Origin: an uncultured virus (IMG/VR IMGVR_UViG_3300036940_000262)
Lineage: Duplodnaviria; Heunggongvirae; Uroviricota; Caudoviricetes
Length of the DNA: 57,661 nucleotides
Reading direction: 5' to 3' (one strand)
Virus record (IMG/VR): IMGVR_UViG_3300036940_000262
A model generated the notes under the pieces. That model had not been told where the DNA came from and ran no database searches. It saw only the letters and a program-made list of their open reading frames with translations. The position numbers and the translations under genes are program-made. Below, in pieces: positions 5,553-50,897 of this stretch. Position 1 is the first letter of the stretch; every line of letters starts with the position of its first letter.

Positions 5553-5691
5553 AAGTTATTTAAACGAAATAATAGATGATTTGACAAATCAGAAAGTGCA
5601 ATCAGGGGTAGATTATAAAACCGCAATTGAGGAATCCTTTAAAGAGGTGCAGATAATGGCGGTGGAGGTGTTCAATGCAGGAAGTAATTAA
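5542..5691 (+). CDS. 49-aa protein (MDIKSYLNEII...), below the ORF-track cutoff
   Basis: GTG start after GAGGTAGGTG. Fills the gap and overlaps both neighbours. Confidence 0.45.
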   Translation: MDIKSYLNEIIDDLTNQKVQSGVDYKTAIEESFKEVQIMAVEVFNAGSN

Positions 5692-6655
5692 AGGCAACCT
5701 GTTAATATTTGGTGATTTACATTTAAGCTGTGTCTACTCTGGATCACATAAAGACTACACCTATGAATCTTATCTACTAATGGATAACATAATAGAAAAA
5801 GTAAAACAGGAAAAAGCGGATTGTGTTATTTTTCTTGGTGACTTGATCGGGGTATCTGAGAGAAACATTAAAGACCATCAGTTCTTAATGAGGGTTTTAC
5901 TGTTCTTTAGAACACTTAACGAATTAACAGATGGTCGTGTCTATTCAGTCAAAGGGAATCATGACAAAGGTGATTTTTCAGACTTCGACTTATTGGTCGG
6001 GTTTGGGTTGTTGAAAACACCTGATAGATTAGACTATTATGGTACAAGTCACGAGATTCGTTTCCATTTAGTAGATTATGGTGACGAGAAGAAGGAGTTA
6101 GAGTACGCAGAGGTTTCTAACGTAGTCTTAGCTCATAACGACTTCACAGTTGAGGGTTTCTCAGACTGGTATCAACATAGAAACGGTGTAAGTTTACAAG
6201 GGTTAAAAAACTGGTCAGAGGTTGATTTAGTCATAGCAGGGCATTTACACACTCCTTCAGAAGGGGTAATTAATGCTATGATTGGTGCTAAATCAGTAGG
6301 ATTGTTGTATACAGGGAGTCCTTCAAGAACTTCTGAACGGTTTGATGATTGCTTCTATGTGAAGTTTGATTACACCGAGGAGGATGACACAACAAACTAC
6401 GATATCTTTATGATGGGTTTACCACCTTGGAAAGATGTGTTTTATGTTGATGAAGAAGTTGATGTAGAGGATGTTGTATCTGAGGAAAGACGAGAAGCTT
6501 CTGAATCATTAACAGAAATTGTTAAAGAGATTATGAGTGGGAGAATCACGAAAGGTGATTTAATATCTCAGGTTGAGGTAGTACCTTATGCAACAGATGA
6601 AGTAAAACAGTTAGCGGTATCCTATTTAAGAAAAGCCATTGATGGGGGAGAATAA
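5675..6655 (+). CDS. Mre11/SbcD-like metallophosphoesterase nuclease
   Basis: GDLH, LGD, GNHD, AH and GHLH motifs; adjacent to the SbcC half. Confidence 0.85.
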   Translation: MQEVIKGNLLIFGDLHLSCVYSGSHKDYTYESYLLMDNIIEKVKQEKADCVIFLGDLIGVSERNIKDHQFLMRVLLFFRTLNELTDGRVYSVKGNHDKGDFSDFDLLVGFGLLKTPDRLDYYGTSHEIRFHLVDYGDEKKELEYAEVSNVVLAHNDFTVEGFSDWYQHRNGVSLQGLKNWSEVDLVIAGHLHTPSEGVINAMIGAKSVGLLYTGSPSRTSERFDDCFYVKFDYTEEDDTTNYDIFMMGLPPWKDVFYVDEEVDVEDVVSEERREASESLTEIVKEIMSGRITKGDLISQVEVVPYATDEVKQLAVSYLRKAIDGGE

Positions 6656-10433: not shown

Positions 10434-11279
10434 TTGGGTTTTCTGGTAAAAAATGAAAGTGATTTAAGAGCTGGCCAAAATCAAGGAATTTTAGATAAAC
10501 CGCTTATAGAGGTTTACAACAAAAATTTATCACCATTAAGGTCTGTATTAAAGCTTAAATATGGTGGTTTTTATAAAGATGACTTCTATATAAATGTAGA
10601 AAAACGGTTTTCAAAGTTGTATGCTTACACAGGGGGTTTATATGAGGAGTGTGTTGTTCTTGCAAAATCAGGTGCTGTAGATGGCAAACTGTCAAATGAT
10701 TCAGAGTTGGTAAGTGTTTTTGAAAAAGTGGTAAAAAACTTTGAGGTTAACTCAACATATCATTTTAACAATCTTCCACAAACAACAGGCTACTTCAAGA
10801 AAAAGAAAACATTATTGGGTTGTAGCACAGAGTTTTTCTTGTACAAAGACTCAACCTATAATGTGATACTTAGGGGTAGTGAAGATACAGATGTAAAAGT
10901 AAATAAAGAATACTGTCGAAATATGGGGTACGATTACGATATCGTAGAGAGGTATATTGAGAAAGGTTACTCAAGAGAAGGGGTGTACAACTACTTAGCG
11001 TATCTTAAAACAGGGTTGTTTGTCTGTGAGGGCAAAACCTATAAATCTATTGAGATTGCCTGTAATGACTTGAAAGTACCGTATGGGGCTATTGTTAGTA
11101 TCATTTTAACGAGAGAGTGTGATTTATGGGATGCTGTAGAATATTATCAATGGATGGAAGACAACAAAGATTATTTGGAAGTCTGCAGCACAGGTCTTTT
11201 AGAAACAAAAGGAAAAGAAGCCAGAATGATTCATAAAAGTATTAAACGAGATGATGATGTCGGTTGGGAGGAATTGTAG
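10434..11279 (+). CDS. hypothetical protein with C-terminal HTH-like repeats
   Basis: FVCEGKTYKSIEIACNDLKV resembles the repeats in 16925..17959. Confidence 0.5.
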   Translation: MGFLVKNESDLRAGQNQGILDKPLIEVYNKNLSPLRSVLKLKYGGFYKDDFYINVEKRFSKLYAYTGGLYEECVVLAKSGAVDGKLSNDSELVSVFEKVVKNFEVNSTYHFNNLPQTTGYFKKKKTLLGCSTEFFLYKDSTYNVILRGSEDTDVKVNKEYCRNMGYDYDIVERYIEKGYSREGVYNYLAYLKTGLFVCEGKTYKSIEIACNDLKVPYGAIVSIILTRECDLWDAVEYYQWMEDNKDYLEVCSTGLLETKGKEARMIHKSIKRDDDVGWEEL

Positions 11280-11431
11280 CACTAAGTCTTTTTGTTAAGT
11301 GCTATAATTACAAGTAAAAAGTAGAGAGAAGGTTTTAAAATGACGGGTGTTTTAAAAACAGCAACAATAGGTATGTGTACAATTGGTCTGTATTGGTTAT
11401 TGTTATTAGAGTTGTTCTTTTAGGAGGTTTT

Positions 11432-11611
11432 ATGTCAATACTGTTTTCAATTACAATTATCTTTGTAGCGGTGGTCAGTTTGATATCTTTTGCATTGTCT
11501 ATCCTGTTTGCTCCTGTAAAATGGGTGATTAAGAAGCTAACACCTTTAGTCATTGCAATTGGTACAGGCTTCATTATATACTGGTATTTTTCAGGAGCAG
11601 TGATGTTTTAA
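11432..11611 (+). CDS. small membrane protein
   Basis: AGGAGG RBS before the MSILFS start; hydrophobic. Confidence 0.5.
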   Translation: MSILFSITIIFVAVVSLISFALSILFAPVKWVIKKLTPLVIAIGTGFIIYWYFSGAVMF

Positions 11612-11746
11612 AGAAGAAGGGGGTAGGATTTTTATGTCTTACAATTTTATAGGTGGAGATTTTGTTTGCAACGGAGATTTCGTTCCTGACATCAATCAAC
11701 AGAGAGATATGCAGGAAAGAATGGACAATTATTAAGAGATTAAGGG

Positions 11747-12115
11747 GTGGAAATGATAGAAACTATGGTCTTTACAATTATTGCAGGATTGTTAACAGTC
11801 ATACCTGCTGACAAGCACAGAAAGTTTTTTGCAGAGAAAGGGATTCTTTTTTCCCATATATTCTTTACGATTGTACTGACAAGGTGTTTAGCAATCGGAT
11901 TGGCACTAGCCTTTGCAGGGGTATATCTTGCAAAACTGTTTTTTACGGTAACGACTCTTGCAGGTATTTGGTTAGGAGTGGCTTTATTTGTAGTAGGGTT
12001 ATTTCTGGGGTACAGACTACCGGTGGCAAAATTCGGTGATCCGTCAAAAGTGACTTATAAAGACTTGAAAGAACAACATACACCTAGAAAAAGAATGTTT
12101 AAGAAACGTAAATAA
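11747..12115 (+). CDS. membrane protein
   Basis: Three hydrophobic segments and a basic tail. Confidence 0.55.
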   Translation: MEMIETMVFTIIAGLLTVIPADKHRKFFAEKGILFSHIFFTIVLTRCLAIGLALAFAGVYLAKLFFTVTTLAGIWLGVALFVVGLFLGYRLPVAKFGDPSKVTYKDLKEQHTPRKRMFKKRK

Positions 12116-12123
12116 ACAGTTTA

Positions 12124-12161
12124 AAACTAGGTAAAAAGAGATATATTGATTGTGGTATAAT
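12124..12161 (+). promoter_or_regulatory. element-specific promoter of the TnpB-CRISPR locus
   Basis: AAACTAGGTA (GGTA at 12130-12133), then 22 nt, then extended -10 TG-G-TATAAT at 12156-12161. Confidence 0.65.
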
Positions 12162-12191
12162 AATGCTAGAGTTAGAGAGGAGGTGAGAAAA

Positions 12192-13421
12192 ATAGAGACA
12201 GTATACAGAATTGAGAAACATATTATTAAAAAGAAGCATCCGCATTTTGCTATGTTGGAGGATTACTGCCATAGAGCAAAGAATCTTTACAACAAGACAA
12301 ACTACGAAATCCGACAAGAGTTTACTAAAAGTGGTAAGGTTTTAAGTCAATTCACTTTAAATAAGTATATGAAAACAGGTGAAAGAGAGGAAGTGTATCG
12401 TGCTATGCCATCGGCTAGAAGTGCTAATGGTACAATAGAGTTGGTGTCTAATGCATGGGTATCCTTTATAAAGGCAAGAAAAGACTACTTTAAGCATCCT
12501 GAGAAGTATAAGAGGTGTCCACGCATACCTGGTTTCTTAGAGAAAGACGGTATGCACATTTTAAACTTAACAAAAGATAGTTGTACACTCAAAGAGGGGT
12601 ACATTTGCTTTCCAAAAGTCTTTGAGGGTTTAAAGTTAAAAACGAATATTACATCAAAACCACAGGTGGTTAGGATTTTACCGAGAAATAAACACTTTGT
12701 TGTAGAGGTTGTTTATAAGATTGAAGTACCTGACAAAGTAGAGGATAACGGACGTTATTTCAGTATTGATATTGGTTTAGATAACTTGGCAACTGTTACA
12801 TCAAATACAGGTATGAGACCTGTAATCATTAACGGTAAAGGTCTAAAGTCAATCAACAAATACTACAATAAACAACTTGCTTATTACAAAAGCATAGCGA
12901 AACAGATGAACGGTGTATTCTCAACAAATAATTTAAATAAGCTTTCCTATAAAAGAAACAACAAGATAAAAGACTATTTACACAAGGCAAGTAAATATAT
13001 TATTGATCTAGCAGTTGAAAACAACATATCGACAATTGTTGTAGGAAACAATAAGGGGTGGAAACAGGAGTCAAAACTATCTAAAAAAGTTAATCAGACT
13101 TTTGTAGGGTTACCGCATCAAATATTTATAGATATGTTAACTTATAAAGGAGAGGATGTAGGAATATCCGTAATTACAACAGAAGAGTCCTACACATCTG
13201 GTACTAGCTTCTTAGACAATGAAGAACCTGTAAAAGAAAACTATAACAAAAAGAGAAGAAAGCATCGAGGGTTATTTATCAGCAACGAAGGGGTAAAAAT
13301 CAATGCAGATGTGAACGCTTCTTATCAAATACTTAAAAAAGTATTCCCTAAAGCGTATGTAGAGTATGGAGAAGGGATAGAGGGTGTGGTGTTACATCCA
13401 ATTGTAGTAAACGCCGCTTAA
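12192..13421 (+). CDS. tnpB: CRISPR-adjacent TnpB-family RNA-guided nuclease (candidate compact Cas12-like effector), ~409 aa
   Basis: N-terminal RIEKHII..KNLYN..NY.IRQ, RuvC-I SIDIGLDNLA, RuvC-II IVVGNNKGWKQ with alternative Glu in TEESYTS, RuvC-III NADVNAS. No zinc finger and no transposase nearby. Start inferred from RBS GGAGGT at 12179-12184; the track's TTG at 12150 lies inside the promoter. Confidence 0.9.
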   Translation: METVYRIEKHIIKKKHPHFAMLEDYCHRAKNLYNKTNYEIRQEFTKSGKVLSQFTLNKYMKTGEREEVYRAMPSARSANGTIELVSNAWVSFIKARKDYFKHPEKYKRCPRIPGFLEKDGMHILNLTKDSCTLKEGYICFPKVFEGLKLKTNITSKPQVVRILPRNKHFVVEVVYKIEVPDKVEDNGRYFSIDIGLDNLATVTSNTGMRPVIINGKGLKSINKYYNKQLAYYKSIAKQMNGVFSTNNLNKLSYKRNNKIKDYLHKASKYIIDLAVENNISTIVVGNNKGWKQESKLSKKVNQTFVGLPHQIFIDMLTYKGEDVGISVITTEESYTSGTSFLDNEEPVKENYNKKRRKHRGLFISNEGVKINADVNASYQILKKVFPKAYVEYGEGIEGVVLHPIVVNAA

Positions 13422-13456
13422 GCGGTGTTGAACAATAAATTCTTTGACAATTTAAG
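13382..13456 (+). ncRNA. putative tracrRNA / omegaRNA 5' scaffold overlapping the tnpB 3' end
   Basis: Hairpin at 13382-13399 with loop GTGT, 20-nt palindrome at 13410-13429 over the stop codon, and anti-repeat ATTCTTTGACAA at 13439-13450. The 5' boundary is uncertain. Confidence 0.55.
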
Positions 13457-13800
13457 GTTGAAGTTCGTCAATGTTTGTCAGGGGAATGACACAGGTGTAA
13501 TTCCAATACGCTCTCTTTCAGCGTTGAAGTTCGTCAATGTTTGTCAGGGGAATGACACCCACATACAAAATTGACCTGACAAGACTTAGTTGAAGTTCGT
13601 CAATGTTTGTCAGGGGAATGACACTAATCGTACCCTCTGTATACGATTCATAAGGTTGAAGTTCGTCAATGTTTGTCAGGGGAATGACACTTGATGTTTC
13701 TACGTATAATGGCAGTAATCGTTGAAGTTCGTCAATGTTTGTCAGGGGAATGACACTATCTACAGTGTGGATTAGATTAGGTACTAGTTGAAGTTCGTCA
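13457..13800 (+). CRISPR. CRISPR array: five identical 36-bp repeats, one truncated terminal repeat, five 30-bp spacers
   Basis: Repeat GTTGAAGTTCGTCAATGTTTGTCAGGGGAATGACAC at 13457, 13523, 13589, 13655 and 13721; 14-bp remnant at 13787-13800. All spacers are unique. Confidence 0.97.
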
Positions 13801-13853
13801 GTTAGACGGTTTATATTTGTTAAATTGAACAAAATTAGAAAGAGGTAAATAGT

Positions 13854-14561
13854 TTGAGTAAAGAACGAGTAGTTGTAAAAACAAGGTCAGTAACAGAGCG
13901 GTCTTATGTACATTTCTTTAAAGATATGTTTGATAATATGTGCAGTTTTGCTTGTGCTGATGATGGTAGATTGCTGGATGCTGAGGATGAGGAAGAGTAT
14001 ACAAAGTGTTTAGACGATAGTAAAGTATCTTACAAAGGGGTAAAAAAATATACTACTATGAGAGAGGGGATGGATATTCTGTGCCTAGAGTGCGGTGAGG
14101 TTGTGAGTATCAATATGAATTCATCATCATCAACTACTTTCACTTGCAGTCATTGTGGTAAAGGTTACGACAATAAAGGTTATAGTGTAGACGACAGAAT
14201 TTTCAGTGAGGTTGTAGAGGTGGAATTAACAAGAGAAGACAAATGTAAATTGGCATTATATGTGTCATTGAGAACTAATTTTGTACTTAAGGAACATATA
14301 AATGAAGCGTTACCTTTATATGGTGAAGAAGTAAATAAGGAAGCCTATAAAGTTTTTCAAGATAGGGTAGACCCTAGGATACCTTATGAAACACAACTGC
14401 TTAACTTTATAAAATCCTCTCAGGTGGAGCCTGTTGGTAGAAGGTTAGGTAAAACTGAAGAGAAGATTGATAAGATGACAAAAGATGTTTTAGAGGTTGT
14501 TTTACAGTCTGTAGACTATGAGGCAGTAGCGAAATCTTTTCAAGACGGGCAAGAGGGGTAG
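13854..14561 (+). CDS. hypothetical protein with zinc ribbon
   Basis: CLECG and CSHCG pair; GAGG RBS. Confidence 0.55.
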   Translation: MSKERVVVKTRSVTERSYVHFFKDMFDNMCSFACADDGRLLDAEDEEEYTKCLDDSKVSYKGVKKYTTMREGMDILCLECGEVVSINMNSSSSTTFTCSHCGKGYDNKGYSVDDRIFSEVVEVELTREDKCKLALYVSLRTNFVLKEHINEALPLYGEEVNKEAYKVFQDRVDPRIPYETQLLNFIKSSQVEPVGRRLGKTEEKIDKMTKDVLEVVLQSVDYEAVAKSFQDGQEG

Positions 14562-14566
14562 AGTTC

Positions 14567-15004
14567 ATGACAACATTAACCTATGCATTAATTGTTGTTG
14601 GAGTAGTCTTTGCAATTGTAGGGGTTGTTATGCTATTCTCATGCATTGCTGAAGGTGTGGCTAAAGGTGTGTTTATATTTGGTCTTGGAGTAATATTGCT
14701 GATTGTGACTTTATTTTTACCAACCTCTACTGACTTATCTATAGATACTTCAAGTTGGTTAAGTGAAACATACACTTGTTATGAAACTCAAGAAACTTTA
14801 ATGTTATTCCAACATGATAATACTTACCACGTATATAATGAAGTGAACTACACGTCAGATGATGGTATCTACACAAAGATAGACGATAACATAATAAGAT
14901 TCAAAAGAGGTTCTGTTGAGTATGAAGCTGTTTACGAGGAGAGCGACGATAATCTAACTGTAGAGAACTTAGATACAGGTCAGAAATACAAGTTTGAGGG
15001 GTAG
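14567..15004 (+). CDS. membrane-anchored protein
   Basis: Two N-terminal TM segments and a small beta-rich domain; similar layout to 56870..57337. Confidence 0.55.
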   Translation: MTTLTYALIVVGVVFAIVGVVMLFSCIAEGVAKGVFIFGLGVILLIVTLFLPTSTDLSIDTSSWLSETYTCYETQETLMLFQHDNTYHVYNEVNYTSDDGIYTKIDDNIIRFKRGSVEYEAVYEESDDNLTVENLDTGQKYKFEG

Positions 15005-16924: not shown

Positions 16925-17959
16925 ATGTATACAGTAAGAGGTAAAAACTACGAATCCCCTACAGAAGCTTGCTTCAAATTAGGGGTAGAACATCACGATG
17001 TTTTAAAGTACTCAAACAAAGGGTATGGCATGAATGAGTCTATTGAATTAGCATTGCAAGACAAAGAAAACGAGTCTTTTATTGTAGATGGTGTAGATTA
17101 CAAAACACTATCCAATGGGTGTAAATTATTAAAGGTGTCAGAAGCTTGTGTGCTTCGGTATTATGTTGAAGAGGGTTTATCTCCTCAAGAAGCGGTTTAC
17201 AAGGCAAAAGCAAACAATGAGACAGGGTTTTATATGCATGATGTAGACTACGGCTCAATAACAAATGCTTGTATACACTACGGTGTAAATTACAACACTG
17301 TTAGAAGGTATGTAAGGGATAAAGGCTTAACAGAACAAGAAGCAATCAGAGCAGTTGCTGATAAACATTCTTTCGTAGTCTTTGGTGTAAACTATAAAAC
17401 AAAGACAAACGCCTGTAAGAAGTTAGGTGTGAAACAACGTCAATTGAATAGTCTACTAAAACAAGGCTACTCTATAAACTCTGCCTTTGATGTACTGTTA
17501 GGGGTTGAAAATCATAAGGTTTTAGAGGAGTCTTTTGAAAAGAAAGTAGCAAGACTCTTTAGAGATATGATATTCAGTTTAGATTTAGATATGGCTGAGT
17601 TAGGTGGCGGCAAGATTACAGATACAGACTTCTCTATCATATACAAAGACATTCTTCAAGTAATGTTAATAGGTGATGAAAATATAACAACCAGAACAAT
17701 GCTTAAAGACGACAATCTCTCAGATAGTGTAACTTGTACATTCCAAAATAAGACATTATCAGAGTCTCATAAAGAGTTAAAAAAGGTACTTGAAAGTAAA
17801 GGCATAAAATCACTGAATTTCAATGTAGCATCTTTAAATAAATCGAGTGCAATTTATGCAAACTTGGATGTTAAGATACTATTCTTCACTTACAACAACT
17901 CACAATTTTTTGTCTTAGTTGATGGTAATAAATTCTTATTAGAGCAATTGAAAGGGTAA
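16925..17959 (+). CDS. protein with four N-terminal HTH-like repeats
   Basis: Repeats of F.V.GV.Y.(S/T)..(A/G)C...GV. Confidence 0.6.
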   Translation: MYTVRGKNYESPTEACFKLGVEHHDVLKYSNKGYGMNESIELALQDKENESFIVDGVDYKTLSNGCKLLKVSEACVLRYYVEEGLSPQEAVYKAKANNETGFYMHDVDYGSITNACIHYGVNYNTVRRYVRDKGLTEQEAIRAVADKHSFVVFGVNYKTKTNACKKLGVKQRQLNSLLKQGYSINSAFDVLLGVENHKVLEESFEKKVARLFRDMIFSLDLDMAELGGGKITDTDFSIIYKDILQVMLIGDENITTRTMLKDDNLSDSVTCTFQNKTLSESHKELKKVLESKGIKSLNFNVASLNKSSAIYANLDVKILFFTYNNSQFFVLVDGNKFLLEQLKG

Positions 17960-18021
17960 ACAGGGTAAAAATATGAAAGGGTTTTTGGTATAATGGTATA
18001 AAATAAAAAAGGGAGCAGGGT

Positions 18022-18987
18022 ATGAAAAAAGTTAAGTATGTGGAATTAGACGACAGTTATGCGAAGTTAGAGGAATTAAGACGGATGCATAGTGATTCGG
18101 GTGGGTGTTTGAGAGTTGATTTAGAGGACTATATCAACAGATTAGAGTTTGGTCAGTTAGGTGAGAATGAGGTTAAAGAGGAGTTGTTGGGGTTGGGTAT
18201 CCCTGCAACTTTGATATCAGGATTGAATCTTTCTTATGAAACTTCTAATGCTCAGATAGACTTTGTTTTAGTGACATCTAAGATTGTTTACTTTATCGAA
18301 TGTAAGTCTATGGTCGGTGATATCGGTGTATCTGAAAATGGTGAATTTAAAAGGTATATGTCAAACGGCGATAAATATGTAGGTGAGGATTTTCCTTCAC
18401 CTGTAAATCAAAACAGAAAACATATTACTGTACTAGACAGAATCCTAGAGGATGGGGGTATTGCTAAAAGTAAGGCTCTAGAAGGTCTAGTTGTTAAATC
18501 ATTAGTAGTATTTACAAACAAGAGAACAAACCTATTAATCAAAGACAGCCCTAATCATGTTAAAAATGTCCTAGTAAAAACATATCATCTTAAAAACAGA
18601 ATCGAGAAAGAGGTAGGAAGGGGTAGAACAGGACTTGGAAAAATAAACAACATTGTTGAAGGTTTAAAGCGGTTACATAACTGTCAGACAAAGGATTATG
18701 TTAAAGAGTATATCGACAGATATGAGTATGAGAAGCGTATTAAGATGCTTAAAAAACAAAGAAAAACCTTCAGTGATTTAAAGATAGCTTTAGAAAGATA
18801 CAGAGAGGAAAAAAGTAAAACAGATGGTATACAACCATATTTTATTCTTTCAGAGGAGCAGATCAACAACTTGTTGGATGTGAGACCGACTTCTGTATCA
18901 GAGTTAAAGGCTGTAAAAGGGTTTAATAAGAATAAAATCAGTAAGTTTGGTAAAGATATTATACTGGTTGTTTCAGAGAATATATGA
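18022..18987 (+). CDS. NERD nuclease-like domain plus HRDC domain protein
   Basis: GQLGE, QIDFVLV, IECKS, SPVNQN; C-terminal LERYR..PYFIL...P.S..EL..VKGF. Confidence 0.8.
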   Translation: MKKVKYVELDDSYAKLEELRRMHSDSGGCLRVDLEDYINRLEFGQLGENEVKEELLGLGIPATLISGLNLSYETSNAQIDFVLVTSKIVYFIECKSMVGDIGVSENGEFKRYMSNGDKYVGEDFPSPVNQNRKHITVLDRILEDGGIAKSKALEGLVVKSLVVFTNKRTNLLIKDSPNHVKNVLVKTYHLKNRIEKEVGRGRTGLGKINNIVEGLKRLHNCQTKDYVKEYIDRYEYEKRIKMLKKQRKTFSDLKIALERYREEKSKTDGIQPYFILSEEQINNLLDVRPTSVSELKAVKGFNKNKISKFGKDIILVVSENI

Positions 18988-19674: not shown

Positions 19675-19703
19675 ATAGAGAACTTTAACTGGTTCTCTAT
19701 TTT
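19675..19703 (+). terminator. intrinsic terminator
   Basis: ATAGAGAAC / GTTCTCTAT stem followed by Ts. Confidence 0.7.
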
Positions 19704-19878
19704 AGTAAACTAGGTAAAACTTTGATTGTTATAATGTTATAATAGAATAAATTAAAAGTGTAAACAACTGTTGGGAAATGGTGAAAGTAGGGATCACAGT
19801 ATATCCGATTAAGGTAATTGCCGTAACTAACACAGAAACAAATGAGACTTTAATCTTTAAAACTTAGGAGAGTATAAA

Positions 19879-27801: not shown

Positions 27802-28088
27802 ATTTACAGGGGATTAAAAAAGTCACTTATTTGTCATAACAGGTGTCAGTATAGGTTTTAGAAGAATGTTAAAATATAATGTTAATATTGTGATATTTAT
27901 TTCTGAGGTATATTAAAAAAAGATAAAATCATTTAAAATAAGGCCTTTGAGCAGTTTATATAGGGGTTGAGGGTATTTATAAGAGGGCAGAAACTCTTTT
28001 AAAAATGTCATAAATATTTTGAAATCAGGGTTAAATTTTTTTAAAATTTGTGGTATAATAGTGTTGTTATTCGGAAAAGAGGTTTTTA

Positions 28089-38890: not shown

Positions 38891-39029
38891 GTACTTTTTA
38901 GAATCTGGAAGGGTTTATTTAGAACTAGAAAGTGTTTGAAGATAGTGTTTTAGTTGAGTTTCGGTGTTGTTTAGGTTATCGGGAGAGGTAAACAAAGAGG
39001 TGCTTGGTTTTTGGGGTGGTGTTAAAAAT

Positions 39030-39430
39030 CTTGGTTAAATATTGGTTCAGTTTTGGTTTAATATTGTTTCAAAATTGGTTACGCCTGTATAGGGGTGGTG
39101 CAGTTGTAGTTTGGTTTAATATTGGTTTAATGTTGGTTTAATGTTGGTTCAGTTTTGGTTTGATTATGGTTTATGGTAGGTTGTTGTGATAATGGTTTAA
39201 ATCTGGTTCATTTTTGGTTTATTACTGGTTTAAAGTTGGTTTTAAAAAAGGCGAGTAGTGGTTTAATTCTGGATAAGATTGTGTTGGTTCAAAACTGGTT
39301 GAAATCTGGTTTACTTTTCATTGATTCTTGGTTAAAATAGTGTTTATAACTGGTTAGATACTGGTTTAAAATTGGTTTAAATTATGATGGTTCAAAACTG
39401 GTTTAAATTTGGTTAAAAAGTGGTTCGATT
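39030..39430. repeat. 11-bp tandem direct repeats (core TGGTT), putative parC centromere
   Basis: About 28 units such as ATTGGTTTAAT, GTTGGTTCAGT and ACTGGTTTAAA in phased blocks upstream of the adaptor and actin genes. Confidence 0.85.
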
Positions 39431-40091: not shown

Positions 40092-41309
40092 ATGAATGAT
40101 AGCATAGTGGTAGCAGGGTTAGATATTGGAAACGGGTATGTAAAAGGGGCAAGTCTTTCGGGGGTAAGTCCTTCATTAACAAAGCATAAGATTGATATTC
40201 CCTCTTGTGCGGTTAGACTTGTACAAAAGTTGGAAGTACCTGACAGTTTAAATGAGGAGTTAATGTCGGATATTTTCAACAAGGTTATATGCAGGATTGA
40301 TTCAGACCTGGTAGAGGATAAACTGCACTTTATGTTTGGTCAGGGTGCAATTGAAACAGGTCATCATCCTGTAGAATTTGATATCGCAGACGGCAATTTA
40401 TCAAAATCTCAACAGCAGTTGTCTGCAACACTAGTTCTAGGCATGGTGGCAAGCAGTGCTTTTAAAGACTATTGGGATGCTAACAAGTCTTTACCGATTG
40501 ACACAATCAGCGTTGAAAGTGTTGTTGCACTAGCCTTACCAATTGGTGAGTACGTAATTTATCGAGAGAGCTTTGCAGAACAATTTAAAAACAAAACACA
40601 TACAGTAACAATCTGTAATTTTGATAAGGATATTACAGTAGATATCAGATTTAAACACGTTCTAGTCATGCCTGAAGGGGTATCAGCTCAGTATGCGATT
40701 GCCAACAAAGGTGAGGATTTTATTGATAAGCTTTTACTGGATGTAAGAAGCAGGGATGAACAAGCAATGAAGGGTATCACAGCAAAAGATGTAATGGTTT
40801 GTGGGAACACTTGTGGTATTGATATTGGAGAAGGAACTGTAAACTTCCCCGTAATTCTAAACGGTAAATTCAATCCAGTTGCTAGTACATCAATTGCTAT
40901 GGGTTTTGGGACAGTAGTAGAGCAGTCAATACCTGCAATTAGAAAACAAAATATGCCTTGGTCTACAAGAAAAGCAGTTGTGAATTTCATGCAACAGAAA
41001 ATAAGTCCTTTAAACGAGAATAAAAAGCGTAAAGTGACAGAAATCATCAATTCTGAAGCCATTGACCTTGTAGATGCAATTATCAGAGAAGTTTCAAAAA
41101 TCCTACGGTCAGGGAATGTTGAGGTAATCTATGTCTATGGTGGGGGTGCAACTCCTTTAAAAGAGGCACTGTATGACAAGTTGGTAGAGAAAACAAAAAC
41201 ATTTGCAGGTGGGGATGCTTTTCCAATTCTGTATCTGGATTCAGTCTATGCCAGAAACTTGAACAAAGAGGGTTTACTGGACTTTGCAAGAGTAAAAGCG
41301 GGGATTTAA
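40092..41309 (+). CDS. parM: ParM/StbA-family actin-like ATPase
   Basis: Actin-fold motifs LDIGNGYVK, PEG, IDIGEGTVN and VYGGGA. Confidence 0.9.
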   Translation: MNDSIVVAGLDIGNGYVKGASLSGVSPSLTKHKIDIPSCAVRLVQKLEVPDSLNEELMSDIFNKVICRIDSDLVEDKLHFMFGQGAIETGHHPVEFDIADGNLSKSQQQLSATLVLGMVASSAFKDYWDANKSLPIDTISVESVVALALPIGEYVIYRESFAEQFKNKTHTVTICNFDKDITVDIRFKHVLVMPEGVSAQYAIANKGEDFIDKLLLDVRSRDEQAMKGITAKDVMVCGNTCGIDIGEGTVNFPVILNGKFNPVASTSIAMGFGTVVEQSIPAIRKQNMPWSTRKAVVNFMQQKISPLNENKKRKVTEIINSEAIDLVDAIIREVSKILRSGNVEVIYVYGGGATPLKEALYDKLVEKTKTFAGGDAFPILYLDSVYARNLNKEGLLDFARVKAGI

Positions 41310-44256: not shown

Positions 44257-44368
44257 TCAACAAACCTATCTATTTTAGATAGGTTTTTAATTTGTGTAAA
44301 CTGGGTATAATGTGCTTACATATTTTGGTATAATGTATCTATCAAATAAATTAAGGAGTATGTGAGAT

Positions 44369-45496: not shown

Positions 45497-45705
45497 GTTA
45501 GGTAGTATTTAGTTGTTCTAGCTGAGAAAGAGTAAACACTTAAGAAGTCTTAAGGAAGTAAATGTGTAAATAGTGAAAAAATTCCTCATTTATGAGCATA
45601 TTTTTCACTATTTTAGAAACTTGCTCAACAGGGTATAAATTAAAGCAAAATAGTGGTATAATATTCTCATAAATAAAATAAGAAAGAAATTTATGAGGTG
45701 TTAAA

Positions 45706-46298: not shown

Positions 46299-46649
46299 GT
46301 TGTAAAATATAGGCGGAAAGTGATTAATGAAGAAATCTCAAATAATCTAAGAGAGATATTTGAGAGAATCCAACCAAAATATAACATCACACTGCAAGAG
46401 TGGAATCATGATAAAGACCATATCCACGTATTATTCAAAGGAAATCCAAACACAGAAATTTCAAAATTCATCAATGCTTACAAATCAGCAAGCAGCCGAT
46501 TGATTAAAAAAGAATATCCTCAAATCAGAAAACAACTCTGGAAGGAATACTTTTGGTCAAGAAGTTTCTGTTTGATAACATCAGGTGGAGCACCAATTGA
46601 AGTTATTAAAAAATACATTGAACAGCAAGGAGGACGAAAGAATGAATAA
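46299..46649 (+). pseudogene. tnpA: 5'-truncated Y1 (HUH) transposase TnpA
   Basis: VVKYRRKV, DHIH and KYIEQQ are present. An in-frame TAA at 46287 removes the usual N-terminal ~20 aa, and there is no good RBS. Confidence 0.75.
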
Positions 46650-47736
46650 AGCTTATAAATTCAGATTATATCCAAATCAAGAACAAGAAATCATGTTCGC
46701 AAAAACATTTGGATGCACACGATTCATTTACAATCAAATGCTTGGTGATAAAATCAAGCATTATGAAGAACACAAAGAAAAATTAAACAACACACCAGCT
46801 CAATACAAAGCTAAATTTGAATGGCTTAAAGAAGTTGATTCTCTCGCCCTCGCAAATGCTCAAATGAATTTGCAAACAGCATATAATAACTTCTTCCGTT
46901 CTCCAAAAGTTGGCTTTCCAAAATTCAAGTCAAAACATAAAAATCGAAATGCTTACACGACAAACAACCAGGGTGGCAATATCCGCATTGAAGATAGACA
47001 TATTAAACTTCCTAAAATCGGCTTTGTTAAAATCAAACAGCATCGTGAAATTCCAGAAGAACAAATCATCAAATCATGCACCATCTCAAAAACTCCTTCT
47101 GGAAAATATTTTGTAAGCATTTTGGTTGAATATGAATTTGAACAGCCTGAATTTGAAGTTGATCTTGAAAACATCTTCGGTCTTGATATGGATATGAAAA
47201 ATTTGTTCACGGATAGCAACGGTAATCGTGCTGACTATCCACACTATTATAGACAATCACTTGATAAACTTGCAAGAGAAAGCCGCAAATTGTCAAAATG
47301 TAAAAAAGGAAGTAACAACCGAAACAAGCAACGGATTAAAGTGACAAAGATCCATGAAAAAATTGCAAATCAACGTAAAGATTTCTTACATAAACTATCT
47401 TATCAGATAACCAATGAATATGATGGCGTGTGTATTGAAGACTTAAACATGAGAGCAATGGGTCAATGCTTAAATCTTGGCAAAAGCGTTGCCGACAACG
47501 GCTGGGGAATGTTCACAAATTTCCTTCTCTACAAACTTTTTGATCAAGGAAAACCGTTAATCAAAGTTGACAAATGGTTCCCAAGCTCAAAAATGTGTCA
47601 TTGCTGCGGATTGATCAACGAAAATCTCACCTTGTCTGACAGAGAATGGACGTGTGAGTGTGGTGAACACCACGACAGAGACTGGAACGCAGCAATTAAT
47701 ATCAAGCGTGAAGGAACAAGAATCCTAACAGCATAA
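46642..47736 (+). CDS. tnpB: canonical IS605 TnpB
   Basis: MNKAYKFRLYP start, GLDMD, CIEDL, CHCC..CECG zinc finger and DRDWNAA; AGGAGG RBS. Confidence 0.95.
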   Translation: MNKAYKFRLYPNQEQEIMFAKTFGCTRFIYNQMLGDKIKHYEEHKEKLNNTPAQYKAKFEWLKEVDSLALANAQMNLQTAYNNFFRSPKVGFPKFKSKHKNRNAYTTNNQGGNIRIEDRHIKLPKIGFVKIKQHREIPEEQIIKSCTISKTPSGKYFVSILVEYEFEQPEFEVDLENIFGLDMDMKNLFTDSNGNRADYPHYYRQSLDKLARESRKLSKCKKGSNNRNKQRIKVTKIHEKIANQRKDFLHKLSYQITNEYDGVCIEDLNMRAMGQCLNLGKSVADNGWGMFTNFLLYKLFDQGKPLIKVDKWFPSSKMCHCCGLINENLTLSDREWTCECGEHHDRDWNAAINIKREGTRILTA

Positions 47737-49940: not shown

Positions 49941-50897
49941 ATGCGTAAAGTAAGTGAACCTTTAATATTAAAGGAGAGCAGTACATTAGACACTCAATTA
50001 AGGTCATTAGAAAACATGAGGGGTTATGTTTCTAATGATAGTGCCTCATTCCTAGAAAACGATATTAAGTTAATGAGCTTTGGTAGTGTTGGCGAGAAGT
50101 CCTTAATGTATGAACTAAAGTCATCTGATATGCCAATCTGTGTTATTAGAGACTTACATCTAAAACATGGTGACCTAACTGCTCAAATTGACTTTGTTGT
50201 AATCACAAGGGGTACTATATACTTATTAGAATGTAAGAACTTGAGTGGAAACATTGAAGTAAGGCATAATGGAGAGTTTATCCGTAAGTATAAATACGAT
50301 GGTAGAACTGTAACAGAGAGCCTGTATTCACCTATAACTCAAAATGCACGTCATCTTAGTATCTTTAAAAAATGTTTGAGTAAGAAACTATCTTTGAAAG
50401 ATAGATTATTTAACAGGTATAAGATAAAACCTTTAGTAGTGCTGGCAAACTCTAGAAGTGTTCTTAATACATTAGAAACGACCAAGTCTTTAATGAATCA
50501 AATCACTAAGATAGACTTAATTAATAAGAGGATTTCAGAGGGTTCTAAGTACAAACCTGAACTATCTAGAAGTCAGTTTAAGAAGGTTAAGAGGATGTCA
50601 TTAAAGGTACTGAGTATGCATGACTTGATTAGCACAGACATATCAAGCAAATACAAGAGGTACTCAAAAGATAAAGAAACTCAACTATTTGATGAGTTAA
50701 GAGCTTATCGAGCAAAGAAAACTAAAGAGGAACAAACAAAAGCGTATTACATCTTCACAAACAGAGAATTAGAGGATGTAGTATCTAATAAACCAAGAAC
50801 AGTTGATGATTTGAAAACTATTTATGGCTTTGGTAGTAAGAAGATTGAAGCCTATGGAGACGATATTATTTCAATTGTTTCAGGTGTTTGCGGTTAG
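49941..50897 (+). CDS. NERD plus HRDC domain protein (paralogue of 18022..18987)
   Basis: GSVGE, AQIDFVVI, LECKN, SPITQN; HRDC LRAYR...AYYIFTN.EL. Confidence 0.85.
   Translation: MRKVSEPLILKESSTLDTQLRSLENMRGYVSNDSASFLENDIKLMSFGSVGEKSLMYELKSSDMPICVIRDLHLKHGDLTAQIDFVVITRGTIYLLECKNLSGNIEVRHNGEFIRKYKYDGRTVTESLYSPITQNARHLSIFKKCLSKKLSLKDRLFNRYKIKPLVVLANSRSVLNTLETTKSLMNQITKIDLINKRISEGSKYKPELSRSQFKKVKRMSLKVLSMHDLISTDISSKYKRYSKDKETQLFDELRAYRAKKTKEEQTKAYYIFTNRELEDVVSNKPRTVDDLKTIYGFGSKKIEAYGDDIISIVSGVCG

Follow-up and report, generated by a model that had tools for sequence, protein, structure and literature searches.

A TnpB-family gene followed by a small CRISPR-like array that probably grew from its own omegaRNA, in an uncultured virus record

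Background

More than 50 independent associations of TnpB with CRISPR, the V-U* clades, are described in the parts of Altae-Tran et al. (PNAS 2023, PMC10691335) on which we draw, with arrays that follow the gene and occupy the omegaRNA's position. There a V-U* clade comprises at least two TnpB clusters with CRISPR, and the origin of the arrays is left undecided between "serial duplication of omegaRNA segments" and insertion by an existing array. The locus described here is a tnpB-family gene with a five-repeat array directly downstream. It lies at positions 12,124 to 13,822 of IMG/VR record IMGVR_UViG_3300036940_000262, an uncultured virus sequence of 57,661 nucleotides (nt) placed in Caudoviricetes; this whole stretch of DNA is referred to as the window.

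The name TranC was given by Jin et al. (Cell 2025; cited in PMC13565253, bioRxiv 10.64898/2026.03.27.714800), and a functional splitting of transposon RNA was proposed. According to the cited sections of PMC13565253, TranC systems have a TnpB-sized effector derived from IS605 or IS607 elements, a short CRISPR array downstream and no genes for adaptation, and their guide is an omegaRNA/reRNA split into one portion that resembles a tracrRNA (trans-activating CRISPR RNA) and another that resembles a crRNA (CRISPR RNA). CauTranC9 (TranC clade 9) comes from a Caudoviricetes genome, and the portion of bioRxiv 10.64898/2026.03.27.714800 used here gives a clade average of 414 amino acids (aa), no expanded REC/WED domains, five repeats and spacers matching phages.

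The window locus resembles the V-U* systems of PMC10691335, as excerpted, in its short array placed 3' of the gene where the omegaRNA would be and in the lack of cas1, cas2 and cas4. It differs from them in being known from one lineage only (the window and a 98% identical relative) and in the rearranged, RIIr-5-like type of its RuvC-II motif. With TranC, as outlined in PMC13565253, it shares a TnpB-sized effector of IS605/IS607 descent, a short downstream array and the absence of adaptation genes; unlike in TranC, the scaffold in the window remains joined to the first repeat, which leaves the split incomplete. CauTranC9 is similar in its TnpB size and five-repeat array and has repeats of 38 bp against 36 nt here, a comparison made by description only. 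The locus was put forward in an initial annotation as a candidate new kind of system. In the cited parts of these sources the kind is already described, as V-U* branches and as TranC, including the phage-borne, TnpB-sized TranC9; the window locus is at least a new member, set against the TranC clades by description only.

The reading preferred here, to which we give a probability of about three in four, is that the locus encodes an immobilised TnpB-family RNA-guided nuclease whose small CRISPR-like array has grown from its own omegaRNA, and that it works like a TranC or type V-U intermediate.

Results and discussion

Layout of the tnpB-array locus

The locus has the layout of TranC and type V-U systems, a TnpB-derived effector with a regular array directly 3' of it. 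Five identical 36-nt repeats, GTTGAAGTTCGTCAATGTTTGTCAGGGGAATGACAC, begin at positions 13457, 13523, 13589, 13655 and 13721 of the plus strand at a spacing of exactly 66 nt, which results in five spacers of 30 nt. Repeat 1 begins 35 nt 3' of the tnpB stop codon (gene end 13421). This arrangement, including a degenerate distal repeat, had been recognised in the initial annotation and was confirmed by sequence reading and a repeat finder. The features are as follows.

12183..13421, plus strand: tnpB-family gene, 412 aa from GTG at 12183 or 409 aa from ATA at 12192
13457..13756, plus strand: array of five 36-nt repeats, from sequence reading and the repeat finder
13493-13522, 13559-13588, 13625-13654 and 13691-13720, plus strand: spacers 1-4, 30 nt each
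13757..13786, plus strand: spacer 5, common to the variant element described below
13787..13822, plus strand: degenerate sixth repeat, with only the first 14 nt retained

The open reading frame (ORF) of tnpB spans 12150..13421 on the plus strand, and both candidate starts sit 3' of a GAGGAGG ribosome-binding site. In the 98% identical relative, P0001, the start was called at the position equal to the GTG; residues of the window TnpB are numbered here from 12192. Each repeat consists of an apical hairpin (GTTGA-AGTTCG-TCAAT), a 3' strand and the tail ATGACAC. The remainder of the sixth repeat carries a terminator-like hairpin (TCGTC-AGTTA-GACGG, 13795-13809) and then a T-rich run. With up to three mismatches allowed, the window holds five copies of the repeat's 3' 19-mer, against 0.04 expected, and the spacers are mutually unrelated, all ten pairwise comparisons falling inside the shuffle range.

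Within the window, the repeat and the tnpB-array gene occur at this single place, and a search of the whole window against Rfam gave no match at gathering scores. The repeat was not recovered from IMG/VR (26-mer), from the JGI metagenomes (repeat junction pattern), from a sample of 401 genomes of the class of genome G001 or from the three genomes that carry loci L004-L006 (both at up to three mismatches).

Derivation of the repeat from the omegaRNA

The 3' flanks of related tnpB genes were found to share a common architecture, namely a stop-spanning hairpin, the anchor GA(A/C)nnATAAA, a long hairpin at once after it, and a single-stranded tail (ATAACNT, ATGACGT or ATAGCAT) that closes the element. 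Right ends were assigned in 70 loci, of which 13 without the anchor pattern were left out and 57 were folded. In these the hairpin directly followed the anchor, and the tail was exactly 7 nt long in 37 of the 57 and 6-9 nt in 50. In the window the tail reads ATGACAC, which is similar to ATAACNT, ATGACAT and ATGACGT, the termini seen at right ends. Based on RNAalifold and pair counting in 30 relatives, 84.6% of the cells in the omegaRNA stems can pair, compared with 42-48% with slid partners, and compensatory changes were present at 25 of 30 pairs; none of 500 shuffles attained these values.

A covariance model (R1) was trained on the omegaRNA 3' regions of 30 ordinary insertion sequence (IS) relatives, with the window left out. 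Its match in the window, at 13370-13492, scored 87.4 bits with an E value of 1.7e-16, covered the full length of the model (positions 1-126) and ended on the last base of repeat 1; the second-best match in the window had an E value of 0.58. The score is within the range of relatives that were not used in training (L044, 89.4; L056, 86.9). One match at the tnpB 3' end was found in 74 of the 83 relatives' loci, and the 3' ends of the matches coincided with right ends defined independently from multi-copy genomes, which lie 38-117 nt beyond the end of the protein match. The window match is thus placed as a TnpB omegaRNA is, across the 3' end of the gene and ending at the guide. The initial annotation had placed the array in the position of the omegaRNA 3' end and guide, and the end of this relatives-only model at the boundary of repeat 1 and spacer 1 bears this out. 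The following elements of the scaffold were assigned.

13344..13492, plus strand: retained omegaRNA scaffold, overlapping the tnpB 3' end (covariation, fold and covariance model)
13344-48 / 13374-78, plus strand: stem A, TTCCC / GGGAT
13382-88 / 13393-99, plus strand: stem B
13401-05 / 13432-36, plus strand: stem C, ATTGT / ACAAT, enclosing the stop-codon hairpin
13410-17 / 13422-29, plus strand: stop-codon hairpin, CGCCGC-TTAA-GCGGTG
3' of stem C, plus strand: anchor GAACAATAAA, then the terminal hairpin and 7-nt tail
13440..13450, plus strand: single-copy 5' strand of the terminal hairpin, TTCTTTGACAA, pairing with TTGTCAGGGGA inside repeat 1

The region 13380-13492 folded at -36.4 kcal/mol (z -4.24). 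In its terminal module no base separates anchor and hairpin (lead 0), the tail is 7 nt and the energy is -13.8 kcal/mol; one of 2000 dinucleotide shuffles of 13440-13492 matched this architecture and energy. Since the relatives-only model stops at the final base of repeat 1, the repeat is a 3' piece of the omegaRNA, its last 36 nt. It consists of the apical hairpin of the ancestral terminal hairpin together with that hairpin's 3' strand and the 7-nt tail, to which the guide is directly joined in relatives. The array is this 36-nt piece with a 30-nt guide, reiterated five times. The 5' strand of the hairpin, which was left in single copy at 13440-13450, is a candidate anti-repeat in cis and tracr-like element for repeats 2-5, its predicted position being supported by homology and not by energy alone. 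A repeat derived from the scaffold, or pairing with it, is also the mark of TranC and type V-U systems, and here the pairing partner is in cis.

A more stable partner for the repeat, in trans, was considered at 11797-11830 of the plus strand (-25.3 kcal/mol). This stretch is complementary to most of the repeat, lies inside an upstream ORF for a 122-aa membrane protein and differs at 11800 in the variant element. It was rejected, as three of 60 shuffled repeats found an equal partner in the same 2.4 kb.

The TnpB-family protein

The protein belongs to the TnpB family, with 181.3 bits against the guided_TnpB model NF040570 (cut-off 100, E 3.5e-53). It also matched Pfam PF01385 (OrfB_IS605, 78.8 vs a cut-off of 30.5), PF07282 (Cas12f1-like_TNB, 35.3 vs 26.3) and PHROG 506. 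It falls outside Cas12f, since NF049972 (Cas12f2) gave 54.4 bits against a cut-off of 450 and the PADLOC Cas12f models matched the RuvC half only (E 7.5e-14). An AlphaFold (AF2) model was obtained with a predicted local distance difference test score of 78.3 and a predicted template modelling (TM) score of 0.66. Its best fold match was AsCas12f 8J12 (E 1.4e-16); the AsCas12f structures 8J12 and 8DZJ gave TM scores of 0.62-0.64, and ISDra2 TnpB (8H1J, TM 0.63/0.69) was also among the best folds. LaTranC, for which structures 9JFQ and 9JFO exist, ranked behind Cas12f and ISDra2 TnpB, 9JFQ being match number 37 (E 5.6e-7, TM 0.54). The locus is thus like Cas12f (type V-F), also a miniature effector and one with a tracrRNA, in its best structural matches, and unlike it in scoring below the Cas12f2 cut-off, in having no zinc finger and in being nested among the TnpBs of insertion sequences. 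Searching the Protein Data Bank (PDB) with the single TnpB sequence gave no match, and a profile search there gave only ISDra2 TnpB, at 5.6e-6.

Alignment with relatives placed RuvC-I at D193 and RuvC-III at D373, within the motif NADVN; both residues are invariant. At the canonical position of the RuvC-II glutamate the protein has G285, the segment IVVGNN aligning to VCIEDL of a second, canonical TnpB of the window. An invariant pair of glutamates, EE331-332, comes after the next strand and is a candidate for the relocated RuvC-II residue. There is no CxxC zinc finger, and TSGTSFLD stands in its place in the alignment with the relatives and the canonical TnpB of the window. The sections of PMC10691335 cited here describe RIIr-5 as a large TnpB clade with glycine for this glutamate and an alternative glutamate, judged to be active and as mobile as others. 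G285 and the alternative EE331-332 make the window protein RIIr-5-like, and its residues match that description as far as sequence goes. No statement on a V-U branch within RIIr-5 was found in the parts of PMC10691335 and its supplement at hand.

The same residues raise the alternative of a nuclease-dead, binding-only protein like TldR or Cas12m, with an array that silences genes instead of cutting. Such a protein would account for the change of the RuvC-II glutamate to glycine and for the missing zinc finger, and exapted TnpB repressors do exist (PMC13565253, in part). In TldR the catalytic loss is specific to the exapted lineage. Here, mobile members of the clade have exactly the same residues: the glycine, the invariant EE, D193 and NADVN are common to the whole clade, including multi-copy and evidently mobile IS copies, and the clade with glycine for glutamate, RIIr-5, is read as active and equally mobile in the cited text of PMC10691335. 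We therefore regard a nuclease-dead protein as quite improbable.

Relatives and phylogeny

Protein searches returned P0001 at 98% identity, on a contig of 58.8 kb (58,792 nt), and thousands of others at no more than 54-59%. The loci of 83 relatives (3 viral and 80 genomic, 39-62% identity) were compared. Where genomes carried several copies, the relatives were ordinary IS elements of about 1.4-2 kb. The closest described elements are the IS200/IS605 tnpB elements of Clostridia and relatives (Tepidibacter thalassicus, Mitsuokella multacida; L004-L080), which are like the window locus in protein sequence (54-59% identity) and have the same omegaRNA scaffold, anchor, terminal hairpin and 7-nt tail. 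Unlike these elements, which are multi-copy, have both ends and carry a single guide, the window locus has no left end, a promoter of the surrounding element and five guides.

A quick tree was built from 62 rows, comprising every second of 120 listed homologues, P0001 and both TnpBs of the window. The window TnpB and P0001 formed the longest ingroup stem (0.6) and were nested among ordinary TnpBs, their sister group being P0025, P0027 and P0077 (Shimodaira-Hasegawa-like approximate likelihood ratio test, 92). The initial annotation had proposed to place the protein in a phylogeny and to ask whether its closest homologues carry related arrays. The placement was obtained. The relatives at up to 59% identity proved to be ordinary insertion sequences, an outcome that the initial annotation had named as one that would count against its reading, and a regular-repeat detector found an array directly downstream of tnpB in none of the 83 loci. 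That these relatives are arrayless insertion sequences speaks for a recent origin of the array and is no argument against function. From the described V-U* and TranC systems the window locus differs in its RIIr-5-like catalytic type without a zinc finger, its still-fused first guide and its nesting among active IS copies.

The detector flagged four of the 83 loci, none of them immediately 3' of tnpB. In L061 three 34-nt repeats lie just upstream of tnpB; the feature in L052 is three tRNA genes and that in L069 a 51-nt tandem repeat. In L016 a Cas12a-type array with eight repeats (L016:1677-2164; the repeat ends AATTTCTGCTTTTGCAGAT) precedes tnpB by about 840 nt, and this locus is an example of an insertion sequence that landed by an existing array.

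L016 bears on the view that gene and array in the window are chance neighbours, a tnpB insertion sequence having landed by a pre-existing orphan mini-array served by host Cas proteins. Orphan arrays are known on phages and plasmids, and the dimensions seen here, 36 nt for the repeat and 30 nt for the spacers, are common among CRISPR arrays. "Insertion near a preexisting array" is also kept open in PMC10691335, in the part cited. An insertion sequence that had arrived in this way would, however, lack its own right end in the window, where repeat 1 completes the omegaRNA model to its last base (1/2000 shuffles). Against it also stand the searches of IMG/VR, the JGI metagenomes, the 401 sampled genomes and the three L004-L006 genomes, none of which held the repeat, and the lack of likeness between the repeat and the 3' flank of the second TnpB of the window. 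Chance neighbourhood is considered very improbable.

Two relatives have duplicated right ends. The hairpin-plus-tail module is present in three copies in L001 (5253-5502), an IMG/VR contig, and in two in L044 (4230-4370), a metagenome-assembled genome of Cellulosilyticum, with irregular gaps of about 7-84 nt. Such modules may be the raw material for the birth of arrays in this clade. At L002, L003, L023 and L061 (two viral contigs and two genomes) the next gene begins almost immediately 3' of tnpB and the omegaRNA model gave no match or a weak one (L023, 43.8 bits); these may be further immobilised copies.

Promoter and loss of the transposon end

The initial annotation held that no IS left end is present and that the gene has the promoter type of the element itself, and both observations stood. 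Beyond the gene start, the region upstream of the window tnpB had no similarity to the upstream regions of 74 relatives, 52 of which match each other there. The following sites were assigned.

12124..12161, plus strand: promoter of the element's own type upstream of tnpB, with the box AAACTAGGTAAAA at 12124-12136 and the extended -10 sequence TGGTATAAT at 12153-12161, separated by N16
12124-12161, 17957-17994, 19698-19735, 28022-28059, 44297-44334 and 45625-45662, plus strand: bipartite promoter sites of tnpB and five other genes

The motif TGNTATAAT occurred 11 times in the window, always on the plus strand, which is the coding strand; 5.0 occurrences were expected over both strands, and one of 100 shuffles reached 11. 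At six of the 11 sites (12153, 17986, 19727, 28051, 44326 and 45654) the box AAAC(T/A)(A/G)GGT(A/T)AAA stood at the same distance, about 16 nt, upstream of TGGTATAAT. The shared promoter type suggests a dedicated regulator or sigma factor.

Pfam was scanned with 50 window ORFs, drawn from 61 ORFs of at least 79 aa after exclusion of the shorter ones of those and of tnpB. No match to tnpA, a serine recombinase, cas1, cas2 or cas4 was found among these 50 ORFs, in agreement with what had first been noted. An IS200/IS605 insertion sequence has both ends, a tnpA acting in cis or in trans and more than one copy, and the window copy does not show this combination. Its probable domestication or immobilisation is supported, because the left end is missing, the promoter type is shared with other genes of the element and the module is kept in a diverged variant; the earlier proposal of domestication gains support from the same three observations. 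The terminator-like hairpin in the sixth repeat is a further sign of domestication.

Variant element and protospacers

Public metagenome runs containing the stretch were two from oil fields (X1, X2) and two from the subsurface (X3, X4). Contigs of X1 and X2 are identical to the window and break inside the array. Contigs reach beyond the start of the window by 41.5 kb (X2) and 45.3 kb (X3), so that the element is larger than 100 kb. In X3 a variant element about 96.5% identical to the window was found. Its 58,792-nt contig ends exactly at 13492 and keeps tnpB and repeat 1; a second contig covers 13727-13988 and holds repeat 5 in part, followed by spacer 5 and the degenerate repeat. The variant is hence covered up to 13492 and again from 13727.

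The X3 variant lacks 663 nt at 13988-14652, most of a 235-aa Cys-rich ORF just 3' of the array, and that gene is therefore not needed for keeping the tnpB-array module.

Spacer 1 matched 30 of 30 bases in a 616-nt contig of X2, with the same loose ends in X1, and spacer 4 matched 30 of 30 in a 260-nt contig of X1; the flanks of both are unlike the window. These contigs appear to be genuine protospacers in co-occurring DNA. Their 5' flanks end in ..GTTGTAA (spacer 1) and ..ATTGTAT (spacer 4), with TTGTA-N in common, a provisional motif whose side would fit the 5' target-adjacent motif of TnpB and Cas12 enzymes. No exact 22-mer of any of the five spacers was found in IMG/VR, spacer 1 had no match in the JGI metagenomes, and a BLAST query with the whole array gave nothing with E < 1 in phage and plasmid collections. 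Within the window no second spacer site was found at up to 10 mismatches over 30 nt, save a few chance sites with 10 mismatches, nor at up to two mismatches over a 16-nt seed. As for the proposed use against competing phages or host genes, use against other DNA as such is supported by two perfect protospacers that have a 5' motif in common and occur in the same metagenomes.

The protospacers also bear on a simpler reading, in which unit 1 alone is functional. The locus would then be a common TnpB that has lost its mobility and has spacer 1 as its sole omegaRNA guide, while units 2-5 would have arisen by duplication or recombination and would be inert. Repeat 1 alone is contiguous with the scaffold, the duplex that the other repeats would form in trans is weak (-12.6 kcal/mol), and L001 and L044 show that right ends are duplicated irregularly and without CRISPR-like regularity. 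Against this reading, the five repeats are 100% identical and exactly 66 nt apart, and the five spacers are mutually unrelated. Moreover, the internal spacer 4 has a perfect protospacer after the same TTGTA-N as spacer 1, and spacer 5 is retained in the diverged X3 variant. An array with a single working unit is judged unlikely.

Proposed mode of action

Under the preferred reading of a TnpB nuclease with an array grown from its omegaRNA, a single transcript would begin near the promoter, at about 12165, and finish near the terminator, at about 13820. TnpB would bind the scaffold, and spacer 1 would serve it in cis in the way of any omegaRNA guide. Units 2-5 would come into play once their 3' strand, UUGUCAGGGGA, has paired in trans with the single-copy 5' strand (13440-13450) on a scaffold molecule, a split at the apical loop that would resemble that of tracrRNA and crRNA. 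The complex would cut targets flanked by TTGTA-N, either on host DNA or on a mobile element present in the same host, with D193, a relocated glutamate (E331 or E332) and D373 as the predicted active site. The uptake of new spacers probably depends on an integrase acting in trans (Cas1-Cas2 of the host or the like), given the uniform spacer length of exactly 30 nt and the lack of an adaptation gene in the window.

Several observations weigh against this reading. The association with an array is confined to one lineage (the window with the 98% identical P0001, or X3 variant) and absent from all 83 other loci; only the X3 variant retains it, which falls short of the at least two TnpB clusters with CRISPR of PMC10691335. 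The canonical RuvC-II glutamate is missing (G285), and activity then depends on a relocated glutamate that, in the cited part of PMC10691335, is described from models only. The cis anti-repeat duplex of -12.6 kcal/mol has 11 base pairs including four G-U pairs, the 71 nt 3' of the stop codon fold no better than shuffles (z -1.12), and the covariance model owes part of its score to 13370-13421, a coding stretch whose conservation reflects the protein. The TTGTA motif was read from two protospacers only, with a chance of about 1e-3 for five shared bases, and the left boundaries of multi-copy relatives begin with (A/G)TATA(G/A)T, not TTGTA. Spacers of exactly 30 nt imply an integrase of the ruler type, and the window encodes none.

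A more far-reaching version can be offered tentatively, although we consider it rather doubtful. It holds that the locus is an independent and very recent transition from TnpB to CRISPR within a clade with glycine for glutamate and no zinc finger, with guide 1 still fused to the scaffold and four guides in need of a trans scaffold, and with an array that grows by exact 30-nt spacers without an adaptation gene of its own. If this were true, host Cas1-Cas2 would have been hijacked by a pure transposon-end repeat, or an undescribed route of spacer capture would exist.

The locus provides natural evidence, at the level of single bases, for the origin of an array by serial duplication of an omegaRNA segment: the repeat begins within the terminal hairpin's apical loop, and the anti-repeat has stayed in cis. 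With about 410 aa, the protein is in addition a candidate compact nuclease that has no zinc finger and a rearranged RuvC site, and it is accompanied by a natural multi-guide array and the provisional TTGTA-N motif. Its ordinary IS relatives would be direct comparators for a transposon nuclease turning into a tool of defence or competition.

Context of the element

The element had been called phage-like in the initial annotation, a description that was not sustained, as no structural (virion) gene was detected in the window by the Pfam scan of the 50 ORFs or with PHROG. A megablast search with 11000-15000 gave no match to phages, a neighbouring 592-aa protein had no relative in IMG/VR, and the helicase of the window is about 24% identical to proteins of known phages. 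Iteron-like repeats of 11 nt, TTGGTTTAAAA and its variants, are dense at 39026-39425, just upstream of an actin-like (ParM/Alp) partition gene at 40092-41309. From their sequences, these iterons and the ParM/Alp gene would give plasmid-style maintenance to an element without detected virion genes in the window.

A tRNA-Leu(CAG) was called by ARAGORN at 6228-6305, inside an SbcD-like ORF (5675-6655); it is probably false, and Rfam gave no tRNA at gathering score.

The second TnpB of the window is encoded at 46585-47736 on the plus strand. It is canonical, with 383 aa, an HTH_OrfB_IS605 domain, a CxxC zinc finger and a match to PHROG 506 at 4e-124. Its 3' flank is structured to about 47830, with the closing hairpin GCCATCCACCTCTGTAGGTGGTGG, and looks like an ordinary omegaRNA; the array repeat has no resemblance to it. 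Two paralogous proteins that combine a NERD nuclease with HRDC are encoded 32 kb apart, at 18022-18987 and 49941-50897.

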